Numbered from the whole stretch's first letter, positions 4-62,603 are shown. The stretch is DNA of 63,771 bases, filler included, from Candidatus Nanoarchaeia archaeon (GCA_035290625.1; 4 parts of 4 records of this genome joined end to end with filler, not necessarily neighbours in it), one strand, 5' to 3'. A program made the numbers and translations. The notes: generated from the sequence alone by a model not told the origin.

Positions 4-122
4 GGTTGCCGCGAGCTCGGCTCTTGCTGTTTTCAGCTAAGAGCGGCACCTCGCCCGTAAGGGACACCCCCCTCCGCTGCTGATGTCTCGCTTGATTGAG
101 TCTCGCGAAATTGGCGGCAACC
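4..122 (-). repeat. Structured intergenic repeat, copy 1 (GCGG/CCGC subtype)
   Basis: Minus strand reads GGTTGCCGCC-aattt-CGCGAGACT...AGCGGAGGGGGG..CCCTTACGGGCGAGGTGCCGCT...AGCCGAGC-TCGCGGCAACC; closely resembles the copies at 33014, 34167 and 60702. Confidence 0.85.
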
Positions 123-160
123 TCCATTCAGGACAGAGCCCGTCATTGGCTCTCAAGAAA

Positions 161-278
161 GGTTGCCGCCTTTTTTGTGAGGCTTTGAAGCAAGACATTA
201 ACACCGACAAGGGGGTCGTCCCATCGGAGGATATGTCGGTTCACAGCAGAAACAGCGCAGCCGAACCCGGCGGCAACC
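161..278 (+). repeat. Structured intergenic repeat, copy 2
   Basis: GGTTGCCGCC/GGCGGCAACC closing stem; GT-GA-GGCT/AGCC-GA-AC; ACCGACA/TGTCGGT. Confidence 0.9.
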
Positions 279-419
279 CGGGCGAGCCATCACCAAAATC
301 CTAACAAGTTGGTAACAAGCTTGCTTAACACGCCCTTGCCAGTTTGGCCATGGCTCCAGTTTCTGCTCAGCCAACAGCTTCCCGCAAGCCTTAAAAAGCT
401 CCGCCGCCTCTCGCAGAGT

Positions 420-1304
420 ATGGAAGACATCGCCAAATGGAGAAAGGCTGGCAGGATTGCAGCCGAGATCCGCGAATACGGAAAAAAGCAGATTAAGAAA
501 GGAGAGTCTCTCCTCGAAACCACAAAGAGGATTGAGGAGAAGGTTGCAGCCTCGGGAGCGCAGCTCGCATTCCCTGTCCAGATGAGCTGCAATGAAATTG
601 CTGCGCATTACTATCCAGGCTTTGACGACAAACAGGTATTTGCAGGCCAGCTTGTCTGCCTTGATGTTGGCACCCATATTGACGGCTGCATCGGAGACAC
701 TGCTGTAACTGTTGACCTCAGCGGCAAGTACTCAGACCTGATTAAAGCAGCGGAAAAGGCTCTCACTGATAGCCTTAGGATTGTTAAGCCGGGTGTTAAG
801 CTCACGGAGATCGGCAAAGCCATCCAAGATGCCATCACAGGAATGGGATTTCAGCCGATCAGAAACCTTTCAGGCCATGGCTTGGCAGAATACCAGATTC
901 ACACGCATCCAACAGTTCCGAATTACAACAACGGAGATCAGGAATCACTGCAAGAAGGCCAGATCATTGCCGTCGAGCCTTTTGCAACAACAGGCTCAGG
1001 CCTTATCCATGAGAAGGGGTTTCCCAACCTCTTCATGATCAGCCAGCCAAAAAACGTGCGCCTCGGCTTTGTGCGGGATATCCAGGCTAAAATCCAGACT
1101 TGGAATGGCTTGCCGTTTGCAAAGAACTGGCTCCTCAGCAAGTGGTCAGAGGCGCAGGTGAACTTTGCGTTAAAGCAATTTAAAGAACTTGGCATCCTCC
1201 AGGAATTTCCACCCCTTGTCGAGCGCTCCGGAGGCATGGTGAGCCAGGCTGAGCATACGCTGATTGTTGGAGAAAAAACCGAGATACTGACAAAGGCAGA
1301 TTAA
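420..1304 (+). CDS. map: Methionine aminopeptidase type II
   Basis: AFPVQMSCNEIAAHY, LDVGTHIDGCIGDTA, NLSGHGL, AVEPFAT, SQAEHT; ATG at 420 follows a TTAAAAA box. Confidence 0.95.
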   Translation: MEDIAKWRKAGRIAAEIREYGKKQIKKGESLLETTKRIEEKVAASGAQLAFPVQMSCNEIAAHYYPGFDDKQVFAGQLVCLDVGTHIDGCIGDTAVTVDLSGKYSDLIKAAEKALTDSLRIVKPGVKLTEIGKAIQDAITGMGFQPIRNLSGHGLAEYQIHTHPTVPNYNNGDQESLQEGQIIAVEPFATTGSGLIHEKGFPNLFMISQPKNVRLGFVRDIQAKIQTWNGLPFAKNWLLSKWSEAQVNFALKQFKELGILQEFPPLVERSGGMVSQAEHTLIVGEKTEILTKAD

Positions 1305-1612
1305 TTATTCGCCCCCCTCAGCAAAGCACCGCATCCGGAGTCTATGATCGTTATATTCTCTCTGTACCTCTGAGCTTCGTCTGCATGGCCAGGATCTTGA
1401 AGAATCATCTCCAGCAAGCTCTCATGCATTTCCTTATGAAAGAGGCATCTCTGCATATGGTGGTACAAACGCTCAGCCCGCCTGGCAAGCTTCGGCGGCA
1501 TAAGCTGATAGGGCGTGGAGCAGAGATAGGTAGTTGTAAAGAAGACAAAAGGATCTATCTTCTCTCTTCCCTCACTGATGCAGTTGCTTGCCGAGTATCT
1601 GGATTGCTTCAT
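1301..1612 (-). CDS. Small hypothetical protein (start uncertain)
   Basis: ORF fills the space between the hisS and map ends; no recognised motif. Confidence 0.35.
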   Translation of the reverse strand: MKQSRYSASNCISEGREKIDPFVFFTTTYLCSTPYQLMPPKLARRAERLYHHMQRCLFHKEMHESLLEMILQDPGHADEAQRYRENITIIDSGCGALLRGANN

Positions 1613-2843
1613 TCAGGCTCACCGCCATCTCTTTTCCTGTTGTCATATCTCTGAGCTTGACCTTGCTCTTCCTCACTTCCTCTTCTCCAAGGAAGATCAC
1701 ATACGGGATGCCAAGACTGGACGCATAATTGAGATTCTTGGAAGGCCCTCTTCCAGAAAGGTCGATATCTGCATTAACCCCGTTCTTCCTGAGTTCGCGG
1801 CAGGCGCTAAACGCTGGGTCAAACGCTCCTATCGGTATGACATACACATCAGCAACAGACTTCTTTTCCTTTTTCTCAAGGCAATCATAAATTCTGTCTA
1901 GGCCAAAACTGATTCCGACAGCAGGCACAGCCCCCTTGCCCATAAATGAGCCGATCATTGAATCATATCTCCCGCCGCCGCACACAGAAGAAGTAATCTT
2001 TGAATCCATAAGCACGACCTCAATGATCGTGCCTGTATAATAGCTGATGCCCCGGGCAAGGCTGATGTCAAAATCTGCCCTAACCTTCTGCCCTTCCAGT
2101 ATCGAAAAGACCTCTCTTATTTCTGCCAATCCCTGAGAGCCCGGCAGCATCGCCTGGAGAGTCTCCATCTTATCCTTATTTGGGGATTTCTGCATGTCAA
2201 GAAACTCCTTGATCTTTCCGACGGTCTCTGCTCCGAGCTTCAATTCCTTCCGGACTGCCTCCCAGCCAAGCTTCTCAAGCTTATCGATGCTGAGGATCGT
2301 CTGCTCCATTTTTGCCTCAGGAACCCCGAAGCTTGCCAAAACCTCATTGAGCAGCTTCCTGTTGTTGATGCGTATCACCGCTTTCAATCCAAGCTCCCTG
2401 AATGCAGCATCAGCAAGGCAGATAAGCTCTGCATCAGCAGTAAGCTTGCTGCATCCCACAATATCCGCATCGCACTGGACGAATTCCCTATACCTTCCCA
2501 ATCCCACAGGCCCATCCCTGAATACAGGCCCAATTTGGTAGCGCTTGAACGGCATTTTGAGCTGGGGGTTCATTGCAACAACACGAGCCAAAGGGACAGT
2601 GAGGTCATATCTCAATCCAAGCTCTCTGCCGCCCTGATCCTTGAAGCGGAACGTCTCCTTCAGAATCTCTGCGCCGCCTGCATATTTAGAAGCCAGTACA
2701 TCCCAGCGCTCGGTTATCGGAGTCTCAAGAGGAGCAAAGCCATACCGCTCAAAAAGCGCTGTCAGTAGCCTTATGATCCCATTCCGCGCAATCTGCTCTT
2801 GGGGAAGGAAATCTCTCGTCCCCTTGCTTCGCTCAGGTTTCAT
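1572..2843 (-). CDS. hisS: Histidine-tRNA ligase
   Basis: KGTRDFLP, LRYDLTVPLAR, GRYREFVQCDADIVG, LARGISYYTG, GGGRYD, AVGISFGLDR. Confidence 0.97.
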   Translation of the reverse strand: MKPERSKGTRDFLPQEQIARNGIIRLLTALFERYGFAPLETPITERWDVLASKYAGGAEILKETFRFKDQGGRELGLRYDLTVPLARVVAMNPQLKMPFKRYQIGPVFRDGPVGLGRYREFVQCDADIVGCSKLTADAELICLADAAFRELGLKAVIRINNRKLLNEVLASFGVPEAKMEQTILSIDKLEKLGWEAVRKELKLGAETVGKIKEFLDMQKSPNKDKMETLQAMLPGSQGLAEIREVFSILEGQKVRADFDISLARGISYYTGTIIEVVLMDSKITSSVCGGGRYDSMIGSFMGKGAVPAVGISFGLDRIYDCLEKKEKKSVADVYVIPIGAFDPAFSACRELRKNGVNADIDLSGRGPSKNLNYASSLGIPYVIFLGEEEVRKSKVKLRDMTTGKEMAVSLNEAIQILGKQLHQ

Positions 2844-2891
2844 AGAAGAAGTTATACTGAATGCGGTTTAAATATGTTTTCTTTCCATTCT

Positions 2892-3419
2892 CTAATGATT
2901 ACCGACATCTGCAAATAACACTAGGAGGAGGCCGGTAATATTAACGAGTATTGAGAGATAGGTCATCCATCCGAATCTAGGATTCAGTTCGTTTATCCTA
3001 TCAGCAATGACGTTTTGTTGCTTTCTACTAACTTCAGCGTATTCATTATTGACCTTCTCTAATTCTTTGAAATTCATCTCCGATAAGTCTGAAATAAATT
3101 GCATAGGAGGATCTTTGTGATAGACCATCCTATATCTATGAATGATAGACCGTCTTAAATCGTTATTAGCTTCGTTCTTATACTGCTCTATTTTTGGACT
3201 GAGGGAGGTTATTTCTTGAATTAGACTAGCCATATCTAGATTAGTCTGCGCACTATTTTGAAGTCTTATATTTTGCTCCCAATTTGAGAACCATATCTCT
3301 TCTTGTCCATGCCAATATTCAATCTCCGAATAAGTATAAAAGCCATACGAAGAGAGAGTAATAGACAAGATGATGAGCAAAGATCCAGCAACGAAGAAAC
3401 TCTTTCTCTTACATGCCAT
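2892..3419 (-). CDS. Hypothetical two-TM membrane protein, AT-rich
   Basis: Hydrophobic N- and C-terminal helices; TTATAAA box upstream. Confidence 0.7.
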   Translation of the reverse strand: MACKRKSFFVAGSLLIILSITLSSYGFYTYSEIEYWHGQEEIWFSNWEQNIRLQNSAQTNLDMASLIQEITSLSPKIEQYKNEANNDLRRSIIHRYRMVYHKDPPMQFISDLSEMNFKELEKVNNEYAEVSRKQQNVIADRINELNPRFGWMTYLSILVNITGLLLVLFADVGNH

Positions 3420-3624
3420 AACTAGTAATTAAGAGAATGCTCATTTATAACTCTTTTCAAAATTCTAGATGCAACTATCAATTATAACTAAGGCATATGC
3501 CAGCGAAACCATTATAACGAATGCTGCATTCAAGAACCGCATGACAGGCAAATTTACAGTGATCATCGAACAAGATAATAAAACACGATCTTCGGATAGA
3601 CAGGGATGAATTCTTAAATCAAAT

Positions 3625-4206
3625 CTAAACCCGGCTCTTATACCTCCCCCGCCTCTCAACGATCTCAAGCCGTTTCTCAACTGTCCTGTCATGATACCCT
3701 TTCAGGACCTCTCTGAAGCATGCCTCCCCTATCGTATGATGCTTTGCCTCCAATGCCTGCCTGAGGAGATGGAGGTCAACAGCTTTGTCTTCTGTTTTCA
3801 AAGAAAAGAAACCCAATCCAAAATCAACAAAATAGGCCTGATCCTTGAGGATGAAATTCGATGTAGTAAGGTCTCCGTGGATGATGTGGTTGTCATGCAG
3901 AATCCTGATCTTGCGTCCAAGTTCCCGCGAGACTTTCCTGTAGTCAGTCTTTTCAAGAATTGAGCTGAGCTTCTTCCCATCAATATACCCCATCACAATC
4001 TTCTCATCATCGGATTCCGCAATTCGCGGGCTTGGAAAATCCAGCTCAGCAAGCTTTTGGAGGATTTTTGCTTCTCTCCTTGTCCGGCTTTTCCTTAGCC
4101 TGCCGTCTATCTCCGGAATCCGATACTCCTTCGGAGCCCGATATTTGATGAGCGATTTTCCATCTTTGTACAGCTTCGCCTCCGCGCCCTGGGCTATAAG
4201 CTTCAT
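3625..4206 (-). CDS. bud32: KEOPS complex kinase Bud32
   Basis: IAQGAEA, LRKSRTRREAK, HGDLTTSN, DFGLG, EDKAVDLHLL, RRGRY. Confidence 0.93.
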   Translation of the reverse strand: MKLIAQGAEAKLYKDGKSLIKYRAPKEYRIPEIDGRLRKSRTRREAKILQKLAELDFPSPRIAESDDEKIVMGYIDGKKLSSILEKTDYRKVSRELGRKIRILHDNHIIHGDLTTSNFILKDQAYFVDFGLGFFSLKTEDKAVDLHLLRQALEAKHHTIGEACFREVLKGYHDRTVEKRLEIVERRGRYKSRV

Positions 4207-4320
4207 GATCTCCAGGTACAATCAATTGTATTTAAAGACTTCGGCAGAAGGGGCTCATTAGAACGTGATGAAGCTCTTTGTAATTAACGTAAGGGCTCTA
4301 TTCGTTTTGGCCGCTCTGCT

Positions 4321-6529: not shown

Positions 6530-6572
6530 CAAACCCACCTCCGTTTTGTTGTTATTCTCTAATACTAAACTA

Positions 6573-7306: not shown

Positions 7307-7472
7307 GGCTCCATCCAAAAAATGAAGGTTGCCATCAATTTGCGAGGCTCTGAACTCAGATCAGTACACCGACAAAGGGGAGGCTCCATCCGGGAAATGT
7401 CGGTTGTCTCCCTTAATTGCGCAGCCGACCTGGATGGCAACCCGACTGAAAGGAGGTTTTTTGGATGGAGCC
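7307..7472 (+). repeat. Structured intergenic repeat, copy 3 (outer GGCTCCATCCAAAAAA inverted repeat)
   Basis: 16-bp outer IR; GGTTGCCATC/GATGGCAACC; GA-GGCT/AGCC-GA; ACCGACA/TGTCGGT. Confidence 0.9.
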
Positions 7473-8295: not shown

Positions 8296-8515
8296 GGTGC
8301 CATTGAAAAGTCATGCAATGCCCTTTGTGAGCCTTCTATTCAAAACACAGAACAGCGACAAAGGGGGTGCTCAACCAAAACGCCTTCTGGCGGTTTGGTG
8401 TGCCAAAAGAGCATGGCTCTTTTTAGCACCATACGGGAAATGTCGCTTCCCATGAAGCTATGAAGGAGGCGAACCTGGCATTGCCGAACGAAGTGAGCAA
8501 CTTTTCAATGCCACC
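8296..8515 (+). repeat. Structured intergenic repeat, copy 4 (CATTGAAAAG subtype with central insert)
   Basis: CATTGAAAAGT/ACTTTTCAATG outer IR; GCAATGCC/GGCATTGC; GT-GA-GCCT/AGGC-GA-AC; AGCGACA/TGTCGCT; core near-identical to the 14953 copy. Confidence 0.92.
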
Positions 8516-12081: not shown

Positions 12082-12157
12082 GACGACCACCTCCCCGGCT
12101 GCCTAAACCCTGCAGATTATATAAAGCTTGCGAATCTCAGCTGCGGTGAAAATCAGT

Positions 12158-12230
12158 GCTGCCGCCTCTTTGCGAGGCTCTTCTCATCACAATGCGCAGC
12201 GACAAGGGGGATGCCGCAGTAAAAACGTCG
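12158..12230 (+). repeat. Structured intergenic repeat, copy 5 (left half only, degenerate)
   Basis: GCTGCCGCC-tcttt-GCGAGGCT...AGCGACAAGGGGG; right half not recognisable. Confidence 0.7.
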
Positions 12231-12538
12231 TCGTCTGGCATTTTGGTGTGCCAAAGTGATGCAGAATTTGCGTATAGTCCAAGATGATGGCACCATCTCT
12301 ATCCACCTTCCACCTCCCCCAAAAAATAACTACTCAACAATAAACACTATAACTTGAAAACACCAACCATCGTCACCTTTTCTGAGTACTACCATTTTAC
12401 ACACCATTACCACCGTTCATTACAAAAATCTCTCCCAGTATACGAAATCGTAACATTTAAATACTAGCGTCACTACAAATCCAAGCTATTGTCCAATTAA
12501 AAAAGAGCCTCAGATGAGGTAAAAAAGCAGGTGATACC

Positions 12539-14939: not shown

Positions 14940-14952
14940 TCAATCTTCAGCC

Positions 14953-15214
14953 GGCGGCATTGAAAAGATATGCAATGCCCTTTGTGAGCCTTCTATTCAA
15001 AACACAGAACAGCGACAAAGGGGGTGCTCAACCAAAACGCCTTCTGGCGGTTTGGTGTGCCAAAAGAGCATGGCTCTTTTTAGCACCATACGGGAAATGT
15101 CGCTTCCCCTGAGAATACACAGGAGGCGAACTGCTCCGAAGGAGCGACCAAAAATGCGAAGCATTTTTGAGTATCGGCATTGCCGAACGAAGTGAGAAGC
15201 TTTTCAATGCCGCC
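14953..15214 (+). repeat. Structured intergenic repeat, copy 6 (longest, all optional modules)
   Basis: GGCGGCATTGAAAAG/CTTTTCAATGCCGCC; core plus GCTCC-GAA-GGAGC, AAAAATGC-GAA-GCATTTTT and CGAAC-GAA-GTGAG. Confidence 0.93.
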
Positions 15215-15283
15215 TTTCATCCGGTCGTTAGCAGATACTTTCATCCAAAAGATTAATAAAGGTGTACTAAGAATACCCCCTCT

Positions 15284-17512: not shown

Positions 17513-17676
17513 GGTCGCATTGAAAAGTGATGCAATGCCTTCTTGTGAGCCTCTGAAATAAAAGAGAGATCAGCGACACAGGGGATGCTCCACACGGGAA
17601 ATGTCGCTTACCACATCTATAAGCGCGAGGCGAACTTGGCATTGCCGAACGAAGTGAGCAACTTTTCAATGCGACC
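17513..17676 (+). repeat. Structured intergenic repeat, copy 7
   Basis: GGTCGCATTGAAAAGT/ACTTTTCAATGCGACC; GT-GA-GCCT/AGGC-GA-AC; AGCGACA/TGTCGCT. Confidence 0.92.
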
Positions 17677-17720
17677 CCTCTTGCACAACTTATTTAAACC
17701 CGCCCTTGTTGGAGGAATGG

Positions 17721-20487: not shown

Positions 20488-20770
20488 GAATAACTGTCAA
20501 ATTTTTCGTTTAGAAACAAGCGAGCTCGATGCCGACTGACTTTCTACTGAGCCACAGGCCCCCCTAGCTGGGCGCGGCAGTATCCGCATCTCATGAACAG
20601 TATTGAAACTGCGGTTAATAGGAGTTCTATTCAATTTTTTCTGGGGCTGAACTATAGAAAGGGGCAACGAAACGATTACGGGGCGAAAAGTCTTTATACC
20701 GGAACATCTACAAGTATCACAACGTAAACTATTTAAAAGAATTAGGTTTTATTGATTTAAAAGGGGAAAA

Positions 20771-21916
20771 ATGGATAACACTAAACATAAAGTTTTTTTT
20801 GGAAATTCAAACAATATGAAAGAAGTTTTAGATAGTAGTGTAAACATTATAGTTACTTCTCCGCCTTATCCTATGATTGAAATGTGGGATAAGCAATTTT
20901 CATCTCTTAATCCAAAAATTGGTGAAGCTCTCAAAGATGGCAAAGGAATGGAAGCTTATGATTTAATGAATGAAGAATTATATAAAGTTTGGAAAGAAGT
21001 AAATCGTGTTCTTGCAGATGGCGGAATTGTTTGTATAAATATTGGTGATGCGACAAGAAAAGTAAATGGCTCTTTTCATCTCTATGCTAATCATTCCAGA
21101 ATAACTCAATATTTTGAGAAGATGGGATTTCAATCTTTACCTTTAATTATATGGAGAAAAGAAACCAATAAACCAAATAAATATATGGGTTCTGGAATGT
21201 TACCCCCTAGTGCATATGTTACACTTGAGCATGAATATATTTTAATCTTCCGCAAAGGAAATAATCGTGAGTTCAAATCTAATGAAATATTAAAAAGACA
21301 AGAAAGCAGTTTTTTTTGGGAAGAGAGAAATGTTTGGTTTTCAGATTTATGGAATGGACTTAAAGGAGTTTCTCAATCGCTTAATCATTCTGATTTACGA
21401 GAGAGGTCGGCAGCATATCCGTTTGAATTAGCATATAGATTAATTAATATGTATTCTCTGAATGGAGATACTGTTCTTGACCCATTTTTCGGAACGGGAA
21501 CAACTATGCTCGCTGCAATGGTTGCCGGCAGAAACTCAATTGGTTATGAAATAGACCCTAATTTTAAAAAAGTTATTGATATGAGAATTTCTGAAACAAT
21601 CCATTTTGGTAGAAATATAGTTATAGACAGATTAAAAAAACATAAGCAGTATATTGAACAAAGGGAAGCTGAAAAGGGCGAACCAAAGCATTATTCAGAG
21701 AGATATGAATTCAAAATTGTAACAAATCAAGAAAAAAATATGTTTTTGCCATTAATCAAAGATATAAAAAAGATTAACGACAATCATCTCGAAGCGATAT
21801 ATGATACTGAAAAGATTGAGTTAGGAAAAAAAGAACATTCTGCAGTTTTAAGTAATCACATAAATAAAGTCAAAGTTGAAAAAGAAGCCCACACATTAAG
21901 CGCATATTTACTTTAG
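20771..21916 (+). CDS. Site-specific DNA methyltransferase (N4-C/N6-A, beta class)
   Basis: Motif IV TSPPY precedes motif I VLDPFFGTGTT; very AT-rich. Confidence 0.93.
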   Translation: MDNTKHKVFFGNSNNMKEVLDSSVNIIVTSPPYPMIEMWDKQFSSLNPKIGEALKDGKGMEAYDLMNEELYKVWKEVNRVLADGGIVCINIGDATRKVNGSFHLYANHSRITQYFEKMGFQSLPLIIWRKETNKPNKYMGSGMLPPSAYVTLEHEYILIFRKGNNREFKSNEILKRQESSFFWEERNVWFSDLWNGLKGVSQSLNHSDLRERSAAYPFELAYRLINMYSLNGDTVLDPFFGTGTTMLAAMVAGRNSIGYEIDPNFKKVIDMRISETIHFGRNIVIDRLKKHKQYIEQREAEKGEPKHYSERYEFKIVTNQEKNMFLPLIKDIKKINDNHLEAIYDTEKIELGKKEHSAVLSNHINKVKVEKEAHTLSAYLL

Positions 21917-21918
21917 AA

Positions 21919-22551
21919 CTATTTTTCTAATCTGTTCATTTCTTGTTTTATTTCGTCAATAACTTCGATATTATTTATTACTTTTTTATCTCCTTCTTTT
22001 ATCGAGATTATATAAAATACTTTTCCACCATATTTAGCAGTAAACTTCTTATGAGTTTCTGCCTGTTGTGTTCTTTCTTTAAAAATTTCAGGAATATGAG
22101 AAACCCCTCCAGCAGGTTTTATTTGTAATCCTATATATTTCTCATTAATCTTAATGAAGAAATCTACATTAAATAGTCTGTCCCATTCATCAGGGGCTGG
22201 TTCAATTTTGACTTTAAGAATATCTTGAAGTTGTCCATATATTGTTTCTTTTTCACTTACATATCCATCATAAGTTCTATTTATGACGAGATTAATTATA
22301 AAATCTATACAATCCTGTTCCGTTACATCATCTATTTCTGCTCGTAAAACTTCTGTAATTTTAGTGTATAACTTTTTCCCTAATTCAATAAGATGTGCTT
22401 TTGGATATACGCTTCCATAATAGTATTTTTCCCAATCTTCTACCTTTCTTGGCTGACACTTTCTTATTTGTTCTGAAACCTTACCAACATTACGAGAGAA
22501 ATTTAACTGAAATCTATTTGTTGCACTATTTAATATCCATTCCTTTGCCAT
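21919..22551 (-). CDS. Type II restriction endonuclease, MjaI-like
   Basis: NVGKVSEQIRKC..WEKYY, APDEWD..NVDFFIK..IGLQIKP (PD-(D/E)xK variant); convergent with the MTase. Confidence 0.75.
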   Translation of the reverse strand: MAKEWILNSATNRFQLNFSRNVGKVSEQIRKCQPRKVEDWEKYYYGSVYPKAHLIELGKKLYTKITEVLRAEIDDVTEQDCIDFIINLVINRTYDGYVSEKETIYGQLQDILKVKIEPAPDEWDRLFNVDFFIKINEKYIGLQIKPAGGVSHIPEIFKERTQQAETHKKFTAKYGGKVFYIISIKEGDKKVINNIEVIDEIKQEMNRLEK

Positions 22552-22861
22552 AATCTATACTAAATCAATAAAACATATATAAATGTTGTTAAATCCGACT
22601 TTTCGCCCTAACGATAAAACTAATGTTGCCCCTTTATTCTTGTTCTTGATTGCTCACCTTGTTCGCCTGAATGAACGCCCCCGAAAAAACTCTTCGGACG
22701 AAGTTTGACCCCACGTTGTAGGGTCAAAGGAGATAACAGGAATTCCGATGTTAGCCAAAATTTTCTTACTGCCGAAAATCAGATAGGTGCTGTAGTTTTT
22801 ACTTACTTTAAACGACGAGGGGGGAATTCCGTAACGACTAGTAACGAGGTGGCGAGAAAAC

Positions 22862-23533
22862 TTATTTTATTTCACAATTACAATTATCCACCCACTCACA
22901 AAATCCACATTCATCAGAGGGGGCAGGAATTTCTGCTTCTAGAACTTGAACAGCTTCCTTAAAAATACTTTCAGCATTTTTGATATTAACTTTAATCTTA
23001 ACCAAATCTTTATGAAAATCCACATCACCATTCTCATGGACTTTGCTTGGATGATAAAACAACAGATACGTATAATCCTCGGTATCGTAGCCATTCTTTC
23101 TCAAGAGAAAATTGTAGATGTCCATTTGATCCTGATAATGTTCATGTGTGTCCTCTTTTAATGGGAAACCCCTGGTCTTATAATCCAAAACAATCAGTTT
23201 CTTTCCTTTCTTGAGAAGATTATCGATTGCTCCATGAAATAGATTGCCTTTCATGTCCGTCCATCGAATTCCTTTAAAGTTGCTTCTCCAGGCTTTAAGA
23301 AGCTCTTCATCATCAAACAGCTTAACCTCCCCCTTTAATTGCTGTAGTTCCGGAGGAAGCTCGCCTCTTTTCATAAACCAGTCAAAGTGTTCTTTGAGGA
23401 TCTTATCCATTCCGCTGGGTAAAGAGGGAAAAATTGTATCCGGCCTTTTAATATTCTTGTTGAAATGAAGCCAGAAACATCTAGGGCAGTCTTTCAATAA
23501 GCTTAAACTTGATGGGCTGAATTTGTATGGCAT
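22862..23533 (-). CDS. PD-(D/E)XK nuclease, Cas4/AddB-like
   Basis: FSPSSL..DCPRCFW, GAIDNL..VLDYKT, QMDIY, CGFC. Confidence 0.85.
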   Translation of the reverse strand: MPYKFSPSSLSLLKDCPRCFWLHFNKNIKRPDTIFPSLPSGMDKILKEHFDWFMKRGELPPELQQLKGEVKLFDDEELLKAWRSNFKGIRWTDMKGNLFHGAIDNLLKKGKKLIVLDYKTRGFPLKEDTHEHYQDQMDIYNFLLRKNGYDTEDYTYLLFYHPSKVHENGDVDFHKDLVKIKVNIKNAESIFKEAVQVLEAEIPAPSDECGFCEWVDNCNCEIK

Positions 23534-29114: not shown

Positions 29115-29792
29115 ATGAAAGATCTTGACCTGCCATGGCTGGAGATGGCTCTACGCAGCCTTCCCGAGGGAACGCAATCATTGCTTGGTGAAGCAGTTCA
29201 GCATCTCATTCAGCAGAATGCAAGCCTGCAGCAGCAGGTAGAGCTGCTTGAACAGCAGGTCGGCATTGATGCTCTTACAGGCCTGTACAACAAAGGGAGG
29301 TTTGAGAAGGATCTGCTCGAACAGGTCTCAGCATTTGAGCGTCTCTTGGATTCACAGAGAGGTGTTGTGCCAAAGGAAAGCCTTGGCCTCATCTACGGAG
29401 ATATTGACCTTTTTAAAAGTATTAATGACGCCAATGAAAGCCATCTGTATGGCGACACTGTGTTGAGGGATGTTGCAGCCGTCCTGAGGAAGGAGGCACG
29501 ACTTCACGAACATGGATACCGCGTAGGAGGAGACGAATTTGCACTTATTCTGCCTCCATCAATTGCTGAACATGGGCTTGGATTGGCCAACAGGATAAGG
29601 GAGAATGTAAGCCAATTGCCAGATGTTACAATGAGCTTTGGAGTTGCTCTCTACCAGCGAGAATCTCCTGTAAAAAGCAGGCAAGATTTGAACGAGGCTG
29701 TAAAGCGGTTCAGAACGCAGGCTGATACTGCGTTATACCAAGCAAAGGAACTAGGAAGAAATCAAGTAGTCCTGTACCAAGAGCAAGTTTAA
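29115..29792 (+). CDS. GGDEF diguanylate cyclase with N-terminal coiled coil
   Basis: DALTGLYNK, DIDLFKSIND, GDTVL, YRVGGDEF, TMSFGVA, ADTALYQAKELGRN. Confidence 0.93.
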   Translation: MKDLDLPWLEMALRSLPEGTQSLLGEAVQHLIQQNASLQQQVELLEQQVGIDALTGLYNKGRFEKDLLEQVSAFERLLDSQRGVVPKESLGLIYGDIDLFKSINDANESHLYGDTVLRDVAAVLRKEARLHEHGYRVGGDEFALILPPSIAEHGLGLANRIRENVSQLPDVTMSFGVALYQRESPVKSRQDLNEAVKRFRTQADTALYQAKELGRNQVVLYQEQV

Positions 29793-30818: not shown

Positions 30819-30965
30819 GGGCTCCATCCAAAAAATGAAGGTTGCCATCATTTTTGAGAGACTCTGCGCAAGTATCGGTGCAGCTGGCAGGAGGACGTCC
30901 CTATGGAGGATGCCAGCATGATGCGTTAGAATGCGCAGGCGAGCCGATGTGCTCCGCAGGAGCAT
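30819..30965 (+). repeat. Structured intergenic repeat, copy 8 (right end lost)
   Basis: GGGCTCCATCCAAAAAATGAAGGTTGCCATC as in copy 3; central stem GCTGGCA/TGCCAGC; GCTCC-GCA-GGAGC. Confidence 0.85.
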
Positions 30966-31156
30966 AGGACTTCGGGTTAAACACCCGAGGCCCTTTTTAT
31001 CATATACACTTCATTTTGGCTGCCTTCCGAAGTGCGCTTCATGAGAAAGAGATAATCTCAAAAGTATTTATAGAAAGTAGACCGAAGAGGGGCACAGACT
31101 AATATTAAGATTAGCTCGGAAGTAATTTATTTACTTTCAAATACATAAAAAATAAA

Positions 31157-31862: not shown

Positions 31863-31961
31863 NNNNNNNNNNNNNNNNNNNNNNNNNNNNNNNNNNNNNN
31901 NNNNNNTTAATTAATTAANNNNNNNNNNNNNNNNNNNNNNNNNNNNNNNNNNNNNNNNNNN
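31863..31961. other. Artificial contig linker
   Basis: N-run, TTAATTAATTAA (stop in six frames), N-run. Confidence 0.97.
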
Positions 31962-32010
31962 NGAGCCCTTGGATTCATAATCTTTATAAATCAGCGCAGG
32001 GTTTTGTGGC

Positions 32011-33013: not shown

Positions 33014-33135
33014 AGGCTGCCGCCAATTTCGCGAGGCTCGATCAGGAAAGAAACTCGGAAGCGGAGGGAGTTGCCCCCTACGGGCGAGGTGCCGCTCTGC
33101 GCTGAAAACAGAAAGAGCCGAGCCGGCGGCAGCCT
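33014..33135 (+). repeat. Structured intergenic repeat, copy 9
   Basis: AGGCTGCCGCC/GGCGGCAGCCT; GC-GA-GGCTC/GAGCC-GA-GC; AGCGG/CCGCT. Confidence 0.9.
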
Positions 33136-33909: not shown

Positions 33910-33969
33910 TCTCTCACCCCCTTGAAAAATCCAAGGCAATCAAAGTATATAAAGTTTACGAAACTGGAT

Positions 33970-34161
33970 CTGGTGAAAGTCGATGTTGCCGCCCCATGTG
34001 AGCCCTTTTAGTGAAAACAACGCAGCGACAAGGGAGTCGCCCCCTGCGGGGAATGTCGATAACCACGCAAGCAGTGCGAGGCGAACTGCTCCGAAGGAGC
34101 GACCAAAAATGCGAAGCATTTTTGAGTACTGGCGGCAACAGCGGAGCGTGACTTTCACTGG
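33970..34161 (+). repeat. Structured intergenic repeat, copy 10
   Basis: GTGAAAGTC/GACTTTCAC; TGTTGCCGCC/GGCGGCAACA; CGACA/TGTCG; both GAA hairpin modules. Confidence 0.9.
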
Positions 34162-34166
34162 AGCAG

Positions 34167-34298
34167 TTCAAAGGTTGCCGCCATTTTTTGCGAGGCTCAA
34201 TCAGGAAAGAAACTCGGAAGCGGAGGGAGCCGCCCTCTACGAGCGAGGTGCCGCTCTTCGCTGAAGACAGAAAGAGCTGAGCTGGCGGCAACCTTGAA
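34167..34298 (+). repeat. Structured intergenic repeat, copy 11 (tandem with copy 10)
   Basis: AAGGTTGCCGCC/GGCGGCAACCTT; close to copy 9. Confidence 0.9.
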
Positions 34299-34357
34299 AA
34301 GAGGGTTAGTGGAGCCGAAACCGTCTTCTTAGGTTCCTTGAGAACTTAGGATCACGT

Positions 34358-34510: not shown

Positions 34511-34715
34511 GCCAGCTCTTCAGGTTTACACCTATTTTAATCTTTCTGTGTGAAGGGCTGGCAGTTTTATTCTTTTTCCATTTTTTCATTGAAGACACAA
34601 TGGCAGCAGACTGTCATTTTCTGCGAAAATGCCCTACTCGGGTTTCCCGTAGGGAGCGACCCCTCCCTCGTCTGCTGCCGTTGCCTCCTGAACTCGGATT
34701 ACTGCCAAATCTGGT

Positions 34716-36258: not shown

Positions 36259-36358
36259 NNNNNNNNNNNNNNNNNNNNNNNNNNNNNNNNNNNNNNNNNN
36301 NNTTAATTAATTAANNNNNNNNNNNNNNNNNNNNNNNNNNNNNNNNNNNNNNNNNNNN
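36259..36358. other. Artificial contig linker
   Basis: N-run, TTAATTAATTAA, N-run. Confidence 0.97.
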
Positions 36359-39431: not shown

Positions 39432-39592
39432 GGGCTTTTTGCAGGGGCTTATCAGGGATGCCGCCGAGTTCGCTTCCAGTTTCCTTTGTTCATATCGACA
39501 TTCCCCGGGTTGGACGACCCCCTTGTCGATGTGCTTCTTTTTGGCTGCAAAGCTCACAAAAAAGGCGGCACCCTTCCCCCTGCAAAAAGCCC
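39432..39592 (-). repeat. Structured intergenic repeat, copy 12
   Basis: GGGCTTTTTGCAGGGG outer IR; minus strand GT-GA-GCTT/AAGC-GA-AC and ATCGACA/TGTCGAT. Confidence 0.9.
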
Positions 39593-42458: not shown

Positions 42459-42603
42459 GGTGGCATTGAAAAGTCATGCAATGCCCTTTGTGAGCCTTCT
42501 ATTCAAAGTACAGAACAGCGACAAAGGGGTTGCTCCATACGGGAAATGTCGCTTCCCATGAGAGTATGCACAAGGCGAAGTCGGCATTGCCGAACGAAGT
42601 GAG
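42459..42603 (+). repeat. Structured intergenic repeat, copy 13 (ends at contig break)
   Basis: Close to copy 4 but without the central insert. Confidence 0.92.
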
Positions 42604-42703
42604 NNNNNNNNNNNNNNNNNNNNNNNNNNNNNNNNNNNNNNNNNNNNTTAATTAATTAANNNNNNNNNNNNNNNNNNNNNNNNNNNNNNNNNNNNNNNNN
42701 NNN
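42604..42703. other. Artificial contig linker
   Basis: N-run, TTAATTAATTAA, N-run. Confidence 0.97.
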
Positions 42704-55633: not shown

Positions 55634-55813
55634 AGGTTGCCGCCGTGCTCAAAAATGCCCTGCATTTTTGGTCGCTCCTTCGGAGCAGCTCGGCTCTTTC
55701 TGTCTTTAGCGAAGAGCGGTCCAACCAAAACGCCCGAAGGTGTTTTGATTGGACCAACCCCTCCCGCTGTGGTTCCTTTACACTATTGAGCCTCGCGAAA
55801 ATGGCGGCAACCT
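55634..55813 (-). repeat. Structured intergenic repeat, copy 15 (tail-to-tail with copy 14)
   Basis: AGGTTGCCGCC/GGCGGCAACCT; AGCGG/CCGCT; central insert and GCTCC-GAA-GGAGC module. Confidence 0.88.
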
Positions 55814-57822: not shown

Positions 57823-58873
57823 TAATCTTATCCTGGATCTTAAAATCAGTATTCAGGAATTTCTTGACTGTTTCAATGTTACTGAGTGTATGGGGAGTTA
57901 TCTGGGAAACCCTGATTGATCCTCCAAAAATCCCAAGAAGCGGAATGAGGTTATCAGCAAGATGCGAATCAACTGGAGCTCCTGAGCTCATCTCCCTCAA
58001 GAGAGCCTTTGCAGCCTCTTCGCCAACTGCCTCAGCCTTTCTCCCCTTCTCTCCCAGGCAGTCTGCTCCCAGCCGGATGGGTCTTCCCAGCGAGGGGTCT
58101 TCAGGATTGGAAGAATACACTGCCCACAGCGTTATTCCGGAACCTGTCGACAGCGTGTCGCAGTATTCAGCAGCAATGGAAACAGGAAATCCACGCAGGG
58201 CATGCTTTGCTGCGGTAGCCTGCCTCTCAGCAACCTCAGCCTTTTCCAAATCCTTTGACGCGTGAGAAATTCCCTGGATTGCAAACAACTTTTGCTGTTC
58301 GGTGAGGAACAATCCTCGAGTAAATTGCTTCTGGTGAAATGAGCTAAAAGAGGGATGCTCATCCAGCCGAAAAAAAGGCTTAGTCCTCAGCTCAACCCAT
58401 CCCCCTCCCTTCGGCATATACCCCCTCCGTATTCCTGAAACACTGATATCGCCGTAGGTTCGCAGATGAGGCGCAAACACCTGATTAAAATAGTCCACAG
58501 GCATGCTGAACGGAACATCAGTTCCTCCTTGGATCCGAAACCGTGTTCTCTTTCCGAAGAGCGATGGAATCAGGACAGCCTGCAGCAGCAGTGTGATGCT
58601 TCCGGCAGTTCCGATATCAATTGAGATATTTCCTCCTCTCAGCTCCTTAGGGATAAAAGTGATTCCAAGAGATCCAGGGTTAGCTCCCTCAACCTGTGCA
58701 GAGCTCAGCTTCTGGCTAGCAGCTATGGCTGCCAGATGCTGCGGCTTGAGGCCAGGCTTAGGCCTGTTCTTCCTGATGTCCTCCATGTGAAACGCTGTTT
58801 TGGTGAGCACAGACAGGGCAAGGGAAGTTCTCAGTATCTGGCCCCCTCCTTCAGCTCCGTTGATAAGCAGCAT
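57788..58873 (-). CDS. rtcA: RNA 3'-terminal phosphate cyclase
   Basis: EGGGQILRT, RPKPGLKPQH, GTAGSITLLLQ, GGTDV, VDSHLADNL. Confidence 0.96.
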   Translation of the reverse strand: MLLINGAEGGGQILRTSLALSVLTKTAFHMEDIRKNRPKPGLKPQHLAAIAASQKLSSAQVEGANPGSLGITFIPKELRGGNISIDIGTAGSITLLLQAVLIPSLFGKRTRFRIQGGTDVPFSMPVDYFNQVFAPHLRTYGDISVSGIRRGYMPKGGGWVELRTKPFFRLDEHPSFSSFHQKQFTRGLFLTEQQKLFAIQGISHASKDLEKAEVAERQATAAKHALRGFPVSIAAEYCDTLSTGSGITLWAVYSSNPEDPSLGRPIRLGADCLGEKGRKAEAVGEEAAKALLREMSSGAPVDSHLADNLIPLLGIFGGSIRVSQITPHTLSNIETVKKFLNTDFKIQDKIITAASPASSQS

Positions 58874-58937
58874 CCGGAAAAGTGAGCCGAAGAGATATAA
58901 AAAGTTATGCCACAAAGCTGCTTGCAGGTAGAAATTC

Positions 58938-59143
58938 AGCTCCATCCAAAAACCTCCTTTCAGTCGGGCTGCCAATGAAAATACTCAGGTATTTTCAAGC
59001 GCTCCTTCGGAGCGCATCGGCTCGCCTGAGCTTTCCAAGGTGCAAAGCTGGCATCCCCGTAGGGACCCCCCCCTGTCAGCTGCTCAGGGATTTGCAAAGA
59101 GGCTCGCAAAAATGATGGCAGCCTTCATTTTTTGGATGGAGCT
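58938..59143 (-). repeat. Structured intergenic repeat, copy 16
   Basis: AGCTCCATCCAAAAA outer IR as in copy 3; GC-GA-GCCT/AGGC-GA-GC; GCTGACA/TGCCAGC. Confidence 0.9.
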
Positions 59144-59188
59144 CCGTAATTCGCAACGCTTTTAAATGCGGCATTCCATCCCTCTCCT

Positions 59189-60112
59189 ATGGATCGGGAA
59201 ACAAGGCAGCATGTCATCTATGGAAGCGTATTCGCCGTAAGCATAATCCTTATCGTCTCTTTTTTCACGATTCAGATCAATGGGCTCAGGACCCAGCTCA
59301 ATGAAGGGCTGTCAAGCCTTACAGCGAAGCTCGAGAGCTCTCTATCAAAAGAAGCCTCCTTGAGAGAGCAGTCCGACGCCAAAGCGGCCAAGGACATAGA
59401 GGATCTCTCCAAATCCCTTGCCCAGAAAGAGAGCCAGATCAGCACCTTGTCAGGCGACCTTTCTTCTCTCCGGATAGAGAGCCAGCAGCAGTTCACCTCC
59501 CTGGAGGAGAACATCAAGTCAGTCAAGATAGAGAACCAGGACTTTTCAGCAATCATCGATGATGTCGTGCAGGGAGTTGTCGGAATCCGCACAGACTCCA
59601 AGCAGGGCTCTGGCTTTATTGCGGACAGCGAGGGCTACATTATCACCAATTATCATGTGATTGAGGGAGCAAGGGCTGCTGCAGTGCTTACCCATGATGG
59701 GGAAAACCATAGGGTGCGGCTCGTTGATTTCAATCCGGATGCAGATATTGCTGTCCTGAAAATAGATGGCAGCTTTGCGTCTCTGGGCTTTACAGATTCC
59801 GACGAGGTTGAGATCGGCCAAAAGGTGATTGCAGTTGGCTCTCCAGGCGGCCTTGACTTTACAGTCACGCAAGGCATCATCAGCGCCAAGAGGCAGAATG
59901 ACGGAAACAGCTACATCCAGATTGATGTTCCGATAAATCCAGGAAACTCTGGCGGGGCTCTGGTCACCATCGAAGGCAAAGTGGCAGGTGTCAATTCCCT
60001 CAAGCTTGCAGGCTTTGAAGGCGTTGGCTTTGCCCTTGCCTCAAACCAGGTGCAGGAGATCATTGAGCCGATGATTGCTGCTGACAAGGCTCGGGTTGCG
60101 CAGTTACCCTAA
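59189..60112 (+). CDS. HtrA-like trypsin serine protease (TM plus coiled coil, no PDZ)
   Basis: GSGF, ITNYHV, DIAVLK, INPGNSGG. Confidence 0.92.
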   Translation: MDRETRQHVIYGSVFAVSIILIVSFFTIQINGLRTQLNEGLSSLTAKLESSLSKEASLREQSDAKAAKDIEDLSKSLAQKESQISTLSGDLSSLRIESQQQFTSLEENIKSVKIENQDFSAIIDDVVQGVVGIRTDSKQGSGFIADSEGYIITNYHVIEGARAAAVLTHDGENHRVRLVDFNPDADIAVLKIDGSFASLGFTDSDEVEIGQKVIAVGSPGGLDFTVTQGIISAKRQNDGNSYIQIDVPINPGNSGGALVTIEGKVAGVNSLKLAGFEGVGFALASNQVQEIIEPMIAADKARVAQLP

Positions 60113-60670
60113 CTTTCTTGCTCTATCTCCCATTCTCGCTCTTTCTGATACGTTATCCCATACCCTTAGCGCTGCATTTTCCAACAGCTTCCTGCTTCCA
60201 TTGTTCTGTATCAAAAAATCAAAGCTTGAGGGCTCTGCCTGGAATTTGCGTATCCTGTCCAGGCTGCTCTTCATCCGCTTTTCAACAATCTCTTTCTTTG
60301 CGGTCACAAGAATGACAAGGTCTGAAATTTTGGAAAGCCGAAGCTCCTTATAGAGGGCAGCATCAATAACTGCAATCTTCTTCCCTGCGCTTTGCCGCTC
60401 GATCTCCAGAATCATCTGAGGATGCACAAGGCTGTTCAGAAGCCTTAAGTTCTTAGGATTGGAAAAGACCAAGTCCCCAAGCACCTTCCTGTCAATCCTT
60501 CTGCCTTTAAGGATCCTTTTCCCGAACAATCGCAGAAGCTCCTCCCTCTTCTGCTCCAGTATTTGATGGCCTATCCTGTCAGCATCAATCACGACAGCGC
60601 CCAAGCTCCTGAAAAAAGCCGCAACTGTCGTCTTCCCAACTCCTATCTTTCCGGTGACGGTAATGATCAT
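60104..60670 (-). CDS. coaE: Dephospho-CoA kinase (bacterial type)
   Basis: TGKIGVGKTT, IDADRIGH, IDRKVLGDLVF, LNSLVHP, DAAL. Confidence 0.88.
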   Translation of the reverse strand: MIITVTGKIGVGKTTVAAFFRSLGAVVIDADRIGHQILEQKREELLRLFGKRILKGRRIDRKVLGDLVFSNPKNLRLLNSLVHPQMILEIERQSAGKKIAVIDAALYKELRLSKISDLVILVTAKKEIVEKRMKSSLDRIRKFQAEPSSFDFLIQNNGSRKLLENAALRVWDNVSERARMGDRARKLG

Positions 60671-60701
60671 AGTGTCTCCATACAATGCTCTGCCCCGATT
60701 G

Positions 60702-60823
60702 AAGGCTGCCGCCTCTTTCGCGAGGCTCAGCAACCAAATATCAGCACAAGCGGAGGGGGTTGCCCCCTACGGGGCGGTGCCGCTCTTTGCTGAAACCAGC
60801 AAGAGCCGAGCCGGCGGCAACCC
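60702..60823 (+). repeat. Structured intergenic repeat, copy 17
   Basis: GGCTGCCGCC/GGCGGCAACC; GC-GA-GGCT/AGCC-GA-GC; AGCGG/CCGCT. Confidence 0.9.
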
Positions 60824-60920
60824 GAACCAAGCAAGATTTTGGACAGAGCCTCTGGACAGAGCCTCTCCGCGAAGCAAATTTATAAACCTTTTTAAAGGAG
60901 CAAGTGATTCTGCTGCGTAT

Positions 60921-61031
60921 GCCAGCGTGACAGAATCCGGCCAATGTGCTCGCCTCGAAGCTTGCGTCCTGGACGCAGTGAAGACAGCGAGTGGGCTTCG
61001 GCCCTTCCAGGTTCAAATCCTGGCGCTGGCG
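60921..61031 (+). tRNA. tRNA-Ser(CGA) with a 26-nt intron at 37/38 (60960-60985)
   Basis: Acceptor GCCAGCG/CGCTGGC; anticodon stem CTCGC/GCGAG; long variable arm GGGC-TTCG-GCCC; T arm CCAGG-TTCAAAT-CCTGG; G73; no encoded CCA. Confidence 0.9.
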
Positions 61032-61146
61032 TAACGGAGTGGAGTCCAGTGCCATGACCAGGAAATCTCTGATTTCCGCTGCCTGACGCCCAAAGAAATG
61101 TGCTCAAAGAATCCAAATGCCTGTCAGTTTTATATCTCTGGTGTCT

Positions 61147-61485
61147 CTAACTGGCCGGATTCAAATACCTCTTCACAGCCCTCTCAAAAGCTTCTCCGGC
61201 TTTCTCTGCCTGCTTAGATGTGCTTTTTGGGCTATAAACAAGGTTATGATAAAATCGAACAACCAGATGTTCATCAGCATCTGTCTCAAGGTAGATTTTT
61301 GAGTTTCCGTCCCATCTTGATCCTACTCTGTACTCCGGTGGGCTGCGCCCTTCCTTAATCCGCCTCAAAATCTCCGAGGGCGGCATTCTCATAACATCAT
61401 CGAATGGTCTCCCCCTGCCGCACTTCTCTTCATACATCCTGATTATCTCCAGAAGATGCTCTTCCTTCAAATCATCGAGTTTCAT
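61147..61485 (-). CDS. Hypothetical protein
   Basis: 112-aa ORF after a CTTATAAG box. Confidence 0.65.
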   Translation of the reverse strand: MKLDDLKEEHLLEIIRMYEEKCGRGRPFDDVMRMPPSEILRRIKEGRSPPEYRVGSRWDGNSKIYLETDADEHLVVRFYHNLVYSPKSTSKQAEKAGEAFERAVKRYLNPAS

Positions 61486-61629
61486 TCGGGCTGGTAATGC
61501 AGATTTCCTTATAAGGGTATCGCCAGCATCGCAACATCGGCGTTATGCCCTCAGTCTGTAAACATGTGGTAAGCCTCGTTTTCACACTTCGACGGCAGGT
61601 TTTTAAAGGGATCGGCGCCCCCCTCCTTA

Positions 61630-62163
61630 ATGACAGAGCCGCAACCTCTATGGGACCAATACCTAATCACAGGAAGCCCTGCAGTGTTCGGGCAGCTCTA
61701 TACACTGACGTATCCAAATGTACGAAATTACATCAGGAGAAACGCATCTTCGCAGCATGTAGAAGACCTTGTGCAGGACGTTTTCTTTAAACTCCTCTCT
61801 CACTATGGCCCCGAAAAGCCCCACCCTGCCCCTTTTAAAGTCCTCCTTATGGCAGTGAGCAGGAATACCCTCATTGACCACCAGCGCAGCCAGGCTGTAC
61901 GAAACAAGTACAGGGGAAATGGGCAAGATCCGTATTCTCTGCCAGAGCAGCGCACAAATCTCGATCTGGAAAGGGCGCTTGGCCAAGCAGGATCTGTGAG
62001 GCTGAGCAGAGACCAGCAGCCTGCATTCAGCCTCTTGCTGAATGGGCACTCTAACGAAGAGATAGCAAATGCATTAGGCAAAAGCAGTCCTGATACAAAG
62101 CAAATGGTGTACAGGATCAGGGAAAAATTGAGATCCAAACTCGATTTTGATCAATTCCTTTGA
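61630..62163 (+). CDS. ECF-type sigma-70 factor homologue
   Basis: Region 2 FGQLY..VRNYI..VEDLVQDVFFKL..FKVLLMAVSRNTLIDHQR; region 4 LSRDQQPAFSL..GHSNEEIANALGKS..TKQMVYRIREKLR. Confidence 0.88.
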   Translation: MTEPQPLWDQYLITGSPAVFGQLYTLTYPNVRNYIRRNASSQHVEDLVQDVFFKLLSHYGPEKPHPAPFKVLLMAVSRNTLIDHQRSQAVRNKYRGNGQDPYSLPEQRTNLDLERALGQAGSVRLSRDQQPAFSLLLNGHSNEEIANALGKSSPDTKQMVYRIREKLRSKLDFDQFL

Positions 62164-62174
62164 GAACTGTAGCC

Positions 62175-62330
62175 CTATTCCTTCTGCTCAAACTCAAATC
62201 CGCAGCCCGGGCATTTGTATCTCGTCGGAGAAATGAGCTTCATACGCTTGTGGCAGGTATAGCAGTATAACGGGACATCTAGGTGGATCCCGACTTCATC
62301 CAGCTGTACATCGACGCCGTTATCCTCCAT
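62175..62330 (-). CDS. 51-aa zinc-ribbon protein (not in ORF track)
   Basis: MEDNGVDVQLDEVGIHLDVPLYCYTCHKRMKLISPTRYKCPGCGFEFEQKE; GGGTGG SD and TTTAAAAA box. Confidence 0.7.
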   Translation of the reverse strand: MEDNGVDVQLDEVGIHLDVPLYCYTCHKRMKLISPTRYKCPGCGFEFEQKE

Positions 62331-62407
62331 GATTCCACCCAAGAATTGACTACACCGCCAACTCAGCTGCAGAGGTTCCGTATCTTTTTAAATGTTATGC
62401 AAAACTG

Positions 62408-62603
62408 GGCTTCCCTGAAAATGTAGTTGCCGTCAATCTGCGAGGCTCTGAACTCAAATCAGTACCCCGACAAGGGGGTTGTCCCATACGGGGAATGTCT
62501 GTCATCCCTATCACTTTCGCAGCCGAGCCGACGTGCTCCGAAGGAGCGCCCGGAAATGTTTGGCATTTCCGATGGCAACCTTGAAAAGATTTTCACCGGA
62601 GCC
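62408..62603 (+). repeat. Structured intergenic repeat, copy 18
   Basis: GTTGCCGTC/GATGGCAAC; GC-GA-GGCT/AGCC-GA-GC; GACA/TGTC; GCTCC-GAA-GGAGC. Confidence 0.88.

Follow-up and report, generated by a model that had tools for sequence, protein, structure and literature searches.

The DNA analysed here, a window of 63,771 nucleotides, comprises four contigs of an 84-contig, 1.37-Mb archaeal assembly (Candidatus Nanoarchaeia archaeon, GCA_035290625.1) joined by N linkers, and its gene content, which includes thermosome, S19e and L31e genes, is archaeal. Between the genes lies a family of short structured repeats, which we interpret as a 'shell and core' MITE (miniature inverted-repeat transposable element): a non-coding unit of 145-260 bp, bounded by terminal inverted repeats (TIRs) of 15-16 bp and a target duplication of 8-9 bp, around a core of ~115 nt. 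The original prediction had listed about 18 copies. Every listed start has a copy, and a covariance model of the core, run on the window with filters off, returns exactly 18 matches at E<=1, the three weakest of which (E 0.05-0.7) all carry hairpin inserts. The listed positions thus stood, but the copies at 4 and 42459 are truncated at contig ends and those at 12158 and 30819 lack the 3' part; nor is the closing stem the boundary of the element, since the elements reach further out, to the TIRs and target duplications. The fold is on the minus strand in 4 of the 18 copies (4, 39432, 55634 and 58938). The copies and associated features are as follows.

1..140, minus strand: copy 1, GGCTCTGTCCTGAAT-type TIR and core; other end lost at the contig start
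149..277, plus strand: copy 2, core intact, ends decayed; back to back with copy 1
7307..7472, plus strand: copy 3, complete; CATCC-type TIR 15/15; 9-bp duplication 7/9; TATA 17 nt to the left
8296..8515, plus strand: copy 4, complete, CATTG type; central loop with a two-hairpin insert; 8-bp duplication 7/8
12139..12272, plus strand: copy 5, CGGTG-type left TIR; core present in its 5' half and decayed in its 3' half
14953..15214, plus strand: copy 6, complete, CATTG type; two hairpin inserts
17513..17676, plus strand: copy 7 (reference), 164 bp, TIR 15/15, exact 8-bp duplication CCTCTTGC
17693..17698, plus strand: TATA box in the promoter of lgt, 16 nt off the right end of copy 7; an example of the target
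20520..20553, minus strand: solo end, GTAG-type TIR and start of the closing stem; absent from the original list
30820..30972, plus strand: copy 8, CATCC-type left TIR, core and a single accessory hairpin; right end missing
33014..33134, plus strand: copy 9, core; TIRs not recognisable
33966..34165, plus strand: copy 10, TIR 11/15, two-hairpin insert
34173..34318, plus strand: copy 11, core, following copy 10 in tandem; right end decayed
34600..34680, minus strand: armless variant read by eye; closing stem, central G/C module, accessory hairpin
39432..39592, minus strand: copy 12, complete; TTTGC-type TIR 15/15; no duplication remaining
42459..42603, plus strand: copy 13, CATTG type; right end lost at the contig end
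55498..55630, plus strand: copy 14, core within an outer inverted repeat not resembling IS5-type TIRs
55634..55812, minus strand: copy 15, core and two inserts, without a TIR pair; adjoins copy 14
58938..59143, minus strand: copy 16, complete; CATCC-type TIR 15/15; TATA 16-17 nt off one end
60686..60850, plus strand: copy 17, core; left end decayed, right end GGCTCTGTCC-type
62408..62603, plus strand: copy 18, chimera with a CCCTG-type left TIR and a CGGTG-type right TIR; no duplication

Copy 4 has its TATA 15-16 nt away on the right side and shares 94% identity with copy 6 over 181 nt; copies 9 and 11 are 88% identical over 116 nt. A contig of depth 3.4 skips 14941-15233, the region of copy 6, with 7 other letters, and is not a clean empty site. 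The fold of copy 7 has a z of about -4.5, both as DNA and as RNA. The armless variant, like the solo end, was absent from the original list, and it has no match to the core model. The N-run/TTAATTAATTAA linkers lie at 31863-31962, 36259-36358 and 42604-42703, and genes across them are not true neighbours.

Genome-wide, a profile built from ten window copies gave 190 matches, merged to 178 copies (~130 per Mb); 122 are full elements, mostly of 140-260 bp, and 22 of the 178 overlap crude open reading frame (ORF) calls, mainly at start extensions. Outside the closing helix comes a short side hairpin and then the TIRs, with a consensus near GGCTYYRTWGAAA. A register-fixed 16-nt TIR pair is found in 122/178 copies, most others being chimeric, decayed or cut. 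Exact direct repeats of at least 7 bp flank 69 of the 125 copies with a TIR, compared with ~0.5 in shuffled flank pairs, which supports the earlier view of an actively spreading element; duplication length peaks at 8 and 9 bp, with 9 for most end types and 8 for the CATTG type. In 79/121 copies, the start of a TATA-like box lies at a distance of 13-19 nt from one end, compared with 2-16/121 at five control offsets; for the next ATG, the peak is at 43-47 nt from the element. Insertions occur in both orientations relative to this promoter, which points away from the element, and 12/128 copies lie between convergent genes, compared with 71/490 of the gaps. Orientation is indeed unrelated to flanking genes, as had been noted from the window (in tandem gene pairs, 41 copies are sense and 35 antisense). 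Elsewhere, in further genomes, TATA was found in 24/39 loci and so was a duplication; in another set, each was found in 17/27 loci. The place of the element is thus the upstream edge of promoters, outside the gene and in either orientation.

A search of carrier genomes and of the order uncovered autonomous elements of 0.9 and 1.2 kb (0.88-1.24 kb), with one DDE transposase each. Among the 41 that have TIRs, TATA lies at 13-19 nt in 33 and a 9-bp duplication is present in 21. Twenty-eight of the 122 MITE TIRs are identical to TIRs of these IS5-like elements, and 73/122 are within 2 mismatches. The ends of the MITE thus match those of insertion sequences (IS), an outcome that the original prediction had named as removing the novelty, and come with the same 9-bp duplication and TATA spacing. 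Within the window, the TIR of copy 3 is identical to that of the 1.2-kb IS L137, and the GGCTCTGTCCTGAAT-type TIR of copy 1 also occurs on IS5-like elements L111, L123 and L124; GGCTCAGTAGAAAGT-type ends are likewise an end type with a matching transposase. The partner transposases are compact (270-320 aa), match Pfam DDE_Tnp_1 above its cut-off and have the IS5 model NF033579 as their nearest NCBIfam model; the two TIR-matching clades align with 31% identity over 125 aa. Partner L095 comes from a genome flagged as unpublished (G328), the same end being obtained independently from L120, and the flagged genomes G305 and G131 contribute alignment row L049, IS locus L090, copy L164 and tally entries.

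Because its ends match IS ends, we identify the mobile unit as a MITE, and because the IS5-like elements of relatives share these ends, the 9-bp duplications and the TATA-spaced target, we infer that it is moved in trans by DDE transposases of the IS5 family. A transposase of this kind (IS903-group-like), encoded elsewhere, would with good probability cut at the TIRs and insert the element, and different end types would be served by several transposases. It is very likely that the family is a MITE of Woesearchaeota-type archaea with IS5-type mobility.

Several observations weigh against this assignment. The matching transposases score 135.7, 91.7 and 98.9 on NF033579, the cut-off of which is 140. 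The assembly yielded no transposase whose ends match exactly; the host's own IS5-like TIR is within 3 mismatches of 3/122 MITE TIRs only, and no parent was found for the CATTG class (8-bp duplication) or for GTA-type ends. Moreover, among 150 genomes of the same order, 45 of which carry the family, IS5-like genes are present in 19/45 carriers and 31/105 others (p 0.14, with incomplete assemblies and related genomes). The host does possess an intact, multi-copy IS5-like element with related ends (L245, C49:19040-20006). Ends of the L245 type also recur at several contig breaks (C15, C17 and C30) and on simple MITEs that lack the core.

Other candidate partners were rejected. IS1595, considered as the parent of the GTA-type ends, occurs in 1/5 and 2/251 genomes and has no matching ends; the host's IS1634-type (C61), IS6-type (C49), IS481-type (C24) and IS200-type Y1 elements have other ends. 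One IS481-type element lies inside a copy of the MITE (G000:C52:18468-18637). PF13737 has no match in the host genome and is not listed for the two TIR-matching transposase clades; the PF13737 elements of relatives also have TATA-edge targets, with different TIRs. Since the PF13737-type IS of one relative (G157; L012, L019, L021 and L023) lie ~15 nt from TATA, this targeting is wider than the MITE family.

The core itself follows the layout originally described, from closing stem to second arm, in the parsed copies: a closing helix, a pyrimidine bulge, 2 bp, a GA/GA tandem, 4 bp, arm 1, a central stem of six pairs around a G-run/C-run/G-run tip, and arm 2. Arm 1 measures 19-21 nt in 133/166 and arm 2 measures 19-20 nt in 124/166 parsed copies, and 161 and 163 of 166 positions retain the GA/GA, a count biased by the anchor. 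The arm length of 19-21 nt holds across genomes; the arm sequence is not kept. When 42 copies taken from several genomes are put into a plain MAFFT alignment, pairing is seen in 93.8% of cells, compared with 76.7% when shuffled and 25-35% for slid partners, and both sides change in 11/17 pairs, with 145 two-sided cells against 52. The tree test, on 142 copies with identities below 85% (after 222 had been tried and 197 parsed), gives 5-31 joint changes at 18/19 Watson-Crick pairs, compared with 0.4-7.5 expected under a branch-weighted null. The plain alignment is the cleaner test, because the parser behind the tree test chooses the register by pairing and hence leans to structure. The covariation of the helices was thus borne out on both alignment and tree, and with it the claim that conservation lies in the structure and not in the sequence. 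With RNAalifold, just the central stem and the G-run/C-run hairpin are recovered, and the apical pairing has two alternatives. In keeping with the initial failure to recognise the fold, no Rfam family matches: there were 0 matches at the gathering threshold in the window, and 2 chance matches far below threshold in 20 copies. GCGAAGC-type side hairpins are present in 53/121 copies, and two-hairpin inserts recur at fixed sites of the element.

Core and shell have partly separate histories. The same core occurs in nine end groups in the host genome and, in other genomes, also within unrelated ends that start with GTA and have 8-bp duplications. Across the core tree, which has few columns and many open forks, end types cluster yet change 24 times (minimum 8, shuffled 61). 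At C34:10571 and C37:5810, near-identical cores lie between different TIR pairs, each with its own duplication. Cores move between shells, and it is very probably recombination between copies that shifts one core among them. Among the autonomous elements, the core model matches 1/40 IS loci (L133, with the core in the 3' tail), and the central module of the core is found in three further loci. The 1.2-kb IS5-like elements (L094, L125-L147) also carry exchangeable hairpin cassettes at one 3'-tail site. After insertion, core and TIR pairs decay alike (4.1% and 4.3% in copies with an intact duplication, 6.8% and 7.7% in old copies), which suggests that selection acts among spreading copies and not on every resident copy.

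Among 150 genomes of the phylum there were 19 matches, all in the same order, and scanning one genome from each species for the pattern yielded 43 loci in 13 records, 11 of them labelled Woesearchaeota, Nanoarchaeota or Nanoarchaeia. The remaining two are labelled Methanosarcinales and Thaumarchaeota; the former is not a sign of wider spread, as it falls in the same order as the host genome. The scan of viral contigs gave 0 pattern matches. No enzyme co-occurs strictly with the family among the 45 carriers, in which, with assemblies incomplete and genomes related, Y1 was found in 23, IS5-like genes in 19 and reverse transcriptase (RT) in 16; a co-distributed HUH/Y1 or RT partner, as once envisaged, is thus not obligatory. 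The host's single RT, which looks like that of a diversity-generating retroelement, is unlinked to the copies and was rejected as a partner. It is a 360-aa protein (G000:C68:37802-39274) with an upstream region resembling such retroelements, truncated at the contig end. A second abundant MITE group, in G306 and G309 (L218, L219, L223, L228, L239 and L242; ~200 and 90 ends), has GTA-type TIRs and 8-bp duplications, and in it the closing and GA-type helices are kept while the interiors differ.

As to what the core contributes, we lean, tentatively, towards a fold at the DNA level that helps the element to spread. The core may be kept for this help rather than for a host need of each copy. A single-stranded DNA rod could bring both TIRs into register and display to a protein a fixed-length bubble between the sheared-GA helix and the G/C-rich tip, a joint step that we put forward with less than even confidence. 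It is also possible, though doubtful, that the core is an old self-serving structure riding in the ends of several unrelated transposons, with one-strand folding giving a copying advantage; the advantage could be, for instance, that a DDE element gains a single-strand route coupled to replication, or that a host protein of replication or transcription finds a place to dock. On this last view, the core would be a structural 'spread enhancer' exchangeable among MITE shells, combined with TATA-anchored targeting in archaea. The probabilities that we attach to the competing readings of the fold partly overlap.

For a DNA fold, the GA/GA tandem lies in a pyrimidine-GA-purine frame, hairpins with a GA tandem and a GNA triloop number 35 on the fold strand against 1, G-T pairs are few (16/672), and the same GA/GNA mini-hairpin is found at the end of the host's IS200-type elements. 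In the available text of PMC13037366 and PMC10085684, tandem-GA and GNA-type motifs are described as stable in DNA. Hairpin cassettes with the GA/GNA motif also stand behind tRNA-like genes (G000:C24:14780, C33:31522-31555 and C33:50950). In the host genome, 59/77 copies and 17/19 contigs have the fold on the C-rich strand, irrespective of gene direction (weakly skewed contigs were excluded, 41 having been scored); with local windows the count is 68/97, and for young copies 23/31. Two complete relatives have, across part of the chromosome, a G-rich strand leaving cdc6, a skew that would place the fold off the lagging-strand template.

Other results speak against a DNA fold. The apical loop is UNCG-G in 107/142 copies, 46 with C-G closure, which is an RNA-type sign, and energies favour neither strand. 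Cut-and-paste transposition of the IS5 type is not known to require a single-stranded fold. The skew bias was not repeated in 20 windows each of two other carriers, G073 (8 C-rich, 19 G-rich) and G101 (17 and 16), and we therefore take strand bias as a hint and not as a rule of the family. Mixed, genome-specific orientation bias is described for IS5a elements in the part of PMC3971601 available, and DNA and RNA folds are, by the available text of PMC5737381, hard to distinguish by computation.

The same MITE with a core acting as RNA, as a rod that resembles 6S or serves as a decoy, has a 20-nt bubble on two sides and influences the transposase or host transcription, is an unlikely alternative with some evidence of its own. 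Tandem G-A pairs form in RNA as well, the UNCG-type apical loop sits on the fold strand in 36 hairpins against 1, and a mild excess of G-T over A-C is seen in the core (22 vs 11, 16 vs 9) and not in the TIRs (17 vs 18). Against it, orientation relative to host transcription is random (41:35), the adjacent promoter is directed away from the element, Rfam has no match in the window or in 20 copies, and the GCGAAGC-type side hairpins are, in the text seen of PMC13037366, far stabler as DNA.

We consider it quite unlikely that the fold has no function and owes its symmetry to gene conversion and template switching, both from copy to copy and from one half of a quasi-palindrome to the other. Recombination is frequent, as chimeric ends and core swaps attest; helices decay after insertion at the rate of the TIRs, and simple core-less MITEs have spread in the host genome too. 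Such correction would, however, convert GA/GA to GA/TC, and the tandem is kept at all but a few positions by the anchor-biased count given above; it would also render the arms complementary, whereas they are unpaired and keep their length of 19-21 nt across genomes.

A separate identity for the core, as a single-stranded DNA element of REP/REPIN-like kind that an HUH enzyme (Y1/RAYT) moves and that settles in IS5-type ends and tails, is improbable. The core in the 3' tail of L133 and its module in three more loci, its presence in unrelated GTA-type ends, the recurring fixed sites of the two-hairpin inserts and the enrichment of Y1 in carriers (23/45 vs 32/105) would suit such a history. The enrichment may, however, reflect general mobile-element load, because RT and IS5 are enriched too, and 22/45 carriers have no Y1 match. 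The duplications border the TIRs rather than the core, and the host's Y1 genes are of the IS200 type, with other ends and no copies adjoining. A REP/REPIN with RAYT or a derivative of IS200/IS605 was likewise rejected for the element as a whole, since duplications are present and Y1 genes are unlinked, with other ends.

That the two variable, unpaired ~20-nt arms between fixed helices are programmable guides (bridge RNA, seekRNA or box C/D RNA) directing insertion or modification is highly improbable and, for genomic targets within the assembly, largely refuted: the longest common stretch with a copy's own flanks is no better than with those of other copies (6.2 vs 6.1; 6.1 vs 6.0), no long match to the rest of the genome goes beyond a slight shift relative to shuffles, copies with the same arm are located at unrelated sites, and the sequence lacks C/D boxes or a K-turn register. 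The lack of excess own-flank match in the loop segments likewise argued against the bridge RNA and seekRNA of IS110 and IS1111. Nor do the arms form a hidden stem, as no pairing of the arms with each other was found. With no mutual pairing, no own-flank match and no clear genomic targets, the arms look like spacers.

As a mobile unit, the MITE is of a known kind, with IS5-type partners. Ordinary MITEs are internal deletions of one parent, and their interiors are usually considered disposable. Here the interior is not derived from the parent (core in 1/40 IS loci), is common to many end types and has a fold that covaries across the order. This ~115-nt core, lacking in nearly all autonomous elements, is the distinctive part: one interior keeps a non-canonical fold and its arm lengths over dozens of family-level lineages while the ends swap among transposases, which points to an unrecognised step in the spread of small elements. 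Like REP/REPIN, which are abundant intergenic structured repeats, and like Correia, ERIC and QMITE, the family is abundant and intergenic, with stable stems and modular hairpins. Unlike REPs, which are moved by HUH enzymes, it has the TIRs and duplication of the IS5 type. For Correia, ERIC and QMITE, the text available of PMC10969869, which names IS elements as the main source of MITEs, describes no non-canonical pair or fixed-length bubble.

The family and its partners resemble the IS903 group of the IS5 family, and MITEs derived from IS5-family elements, in their short TIRs beginning with GG, in the 9-bp duplication, and in the partner length of ~0.9-1.2 kb with a single DDE_Tnp_1 transposase; the partners fit the 9-bp duplication, inverted repeats of 15-19 bp and size of about 1 kb expected of the IS903 group. 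A table in PMC3281130, a source available in part, gives 9-bp duplications and inverted repeats of 15-27 bp for that group. In its fixed spacing to a promoter element and its intergenic, low-harm insertion, the family recalls TnGBS, ISLre2 and ISKra4, which the available part of PMC3942029 describes as Mutator-like DDE elements inserting 15-17 bp upstream of sigma-A promoters. It differs in that the partners are nearest to IS5 and not Mutator-like, the archaeal TATA replaces the bacterial -35 box, and insertion, oriented in the TnGBS type, occurs in both orientations. For archaeal ISH6, an AT-rich, possibly promoter-biased target is merely suggested in the same text. Compact transposases landing at the upstream edge of TATA promoters amount to a testable targeting rule, useful for archaeal genetics, and the ~178 copies adjoin a sizeable share of the promoters of a small genome and break its assembly.

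We found no description of this family in the open-access literature, subscription papers not being covered. The available part of a prokaryotic MITE catalogue (PMC11602168) gives 105 MITEs per Mb for one Woesearchaea genome, a density comparable with that found here, without a structure, partner or target for them; sequences of the family may be in its supplement. A 2026 survey of archaeal IS (PMC13343696) uses 'promoter' 0 times and 'MITE' once.

Finally, some genes of the window merit mention. Adjoining the solo end, a DNA methylase, an MjaI-type endonuclease and a PD-(D/E)XK nuclease lie side by side (20771-23533). A GGDEF-domain protein, unusual in archaea, is encoded at 29115-29792 (plus strand), and a 177-aa ORF at 61630-62163 (plus strand) matches sigma-70 regions 2 and 4 (ECF-like), in an archaeon.

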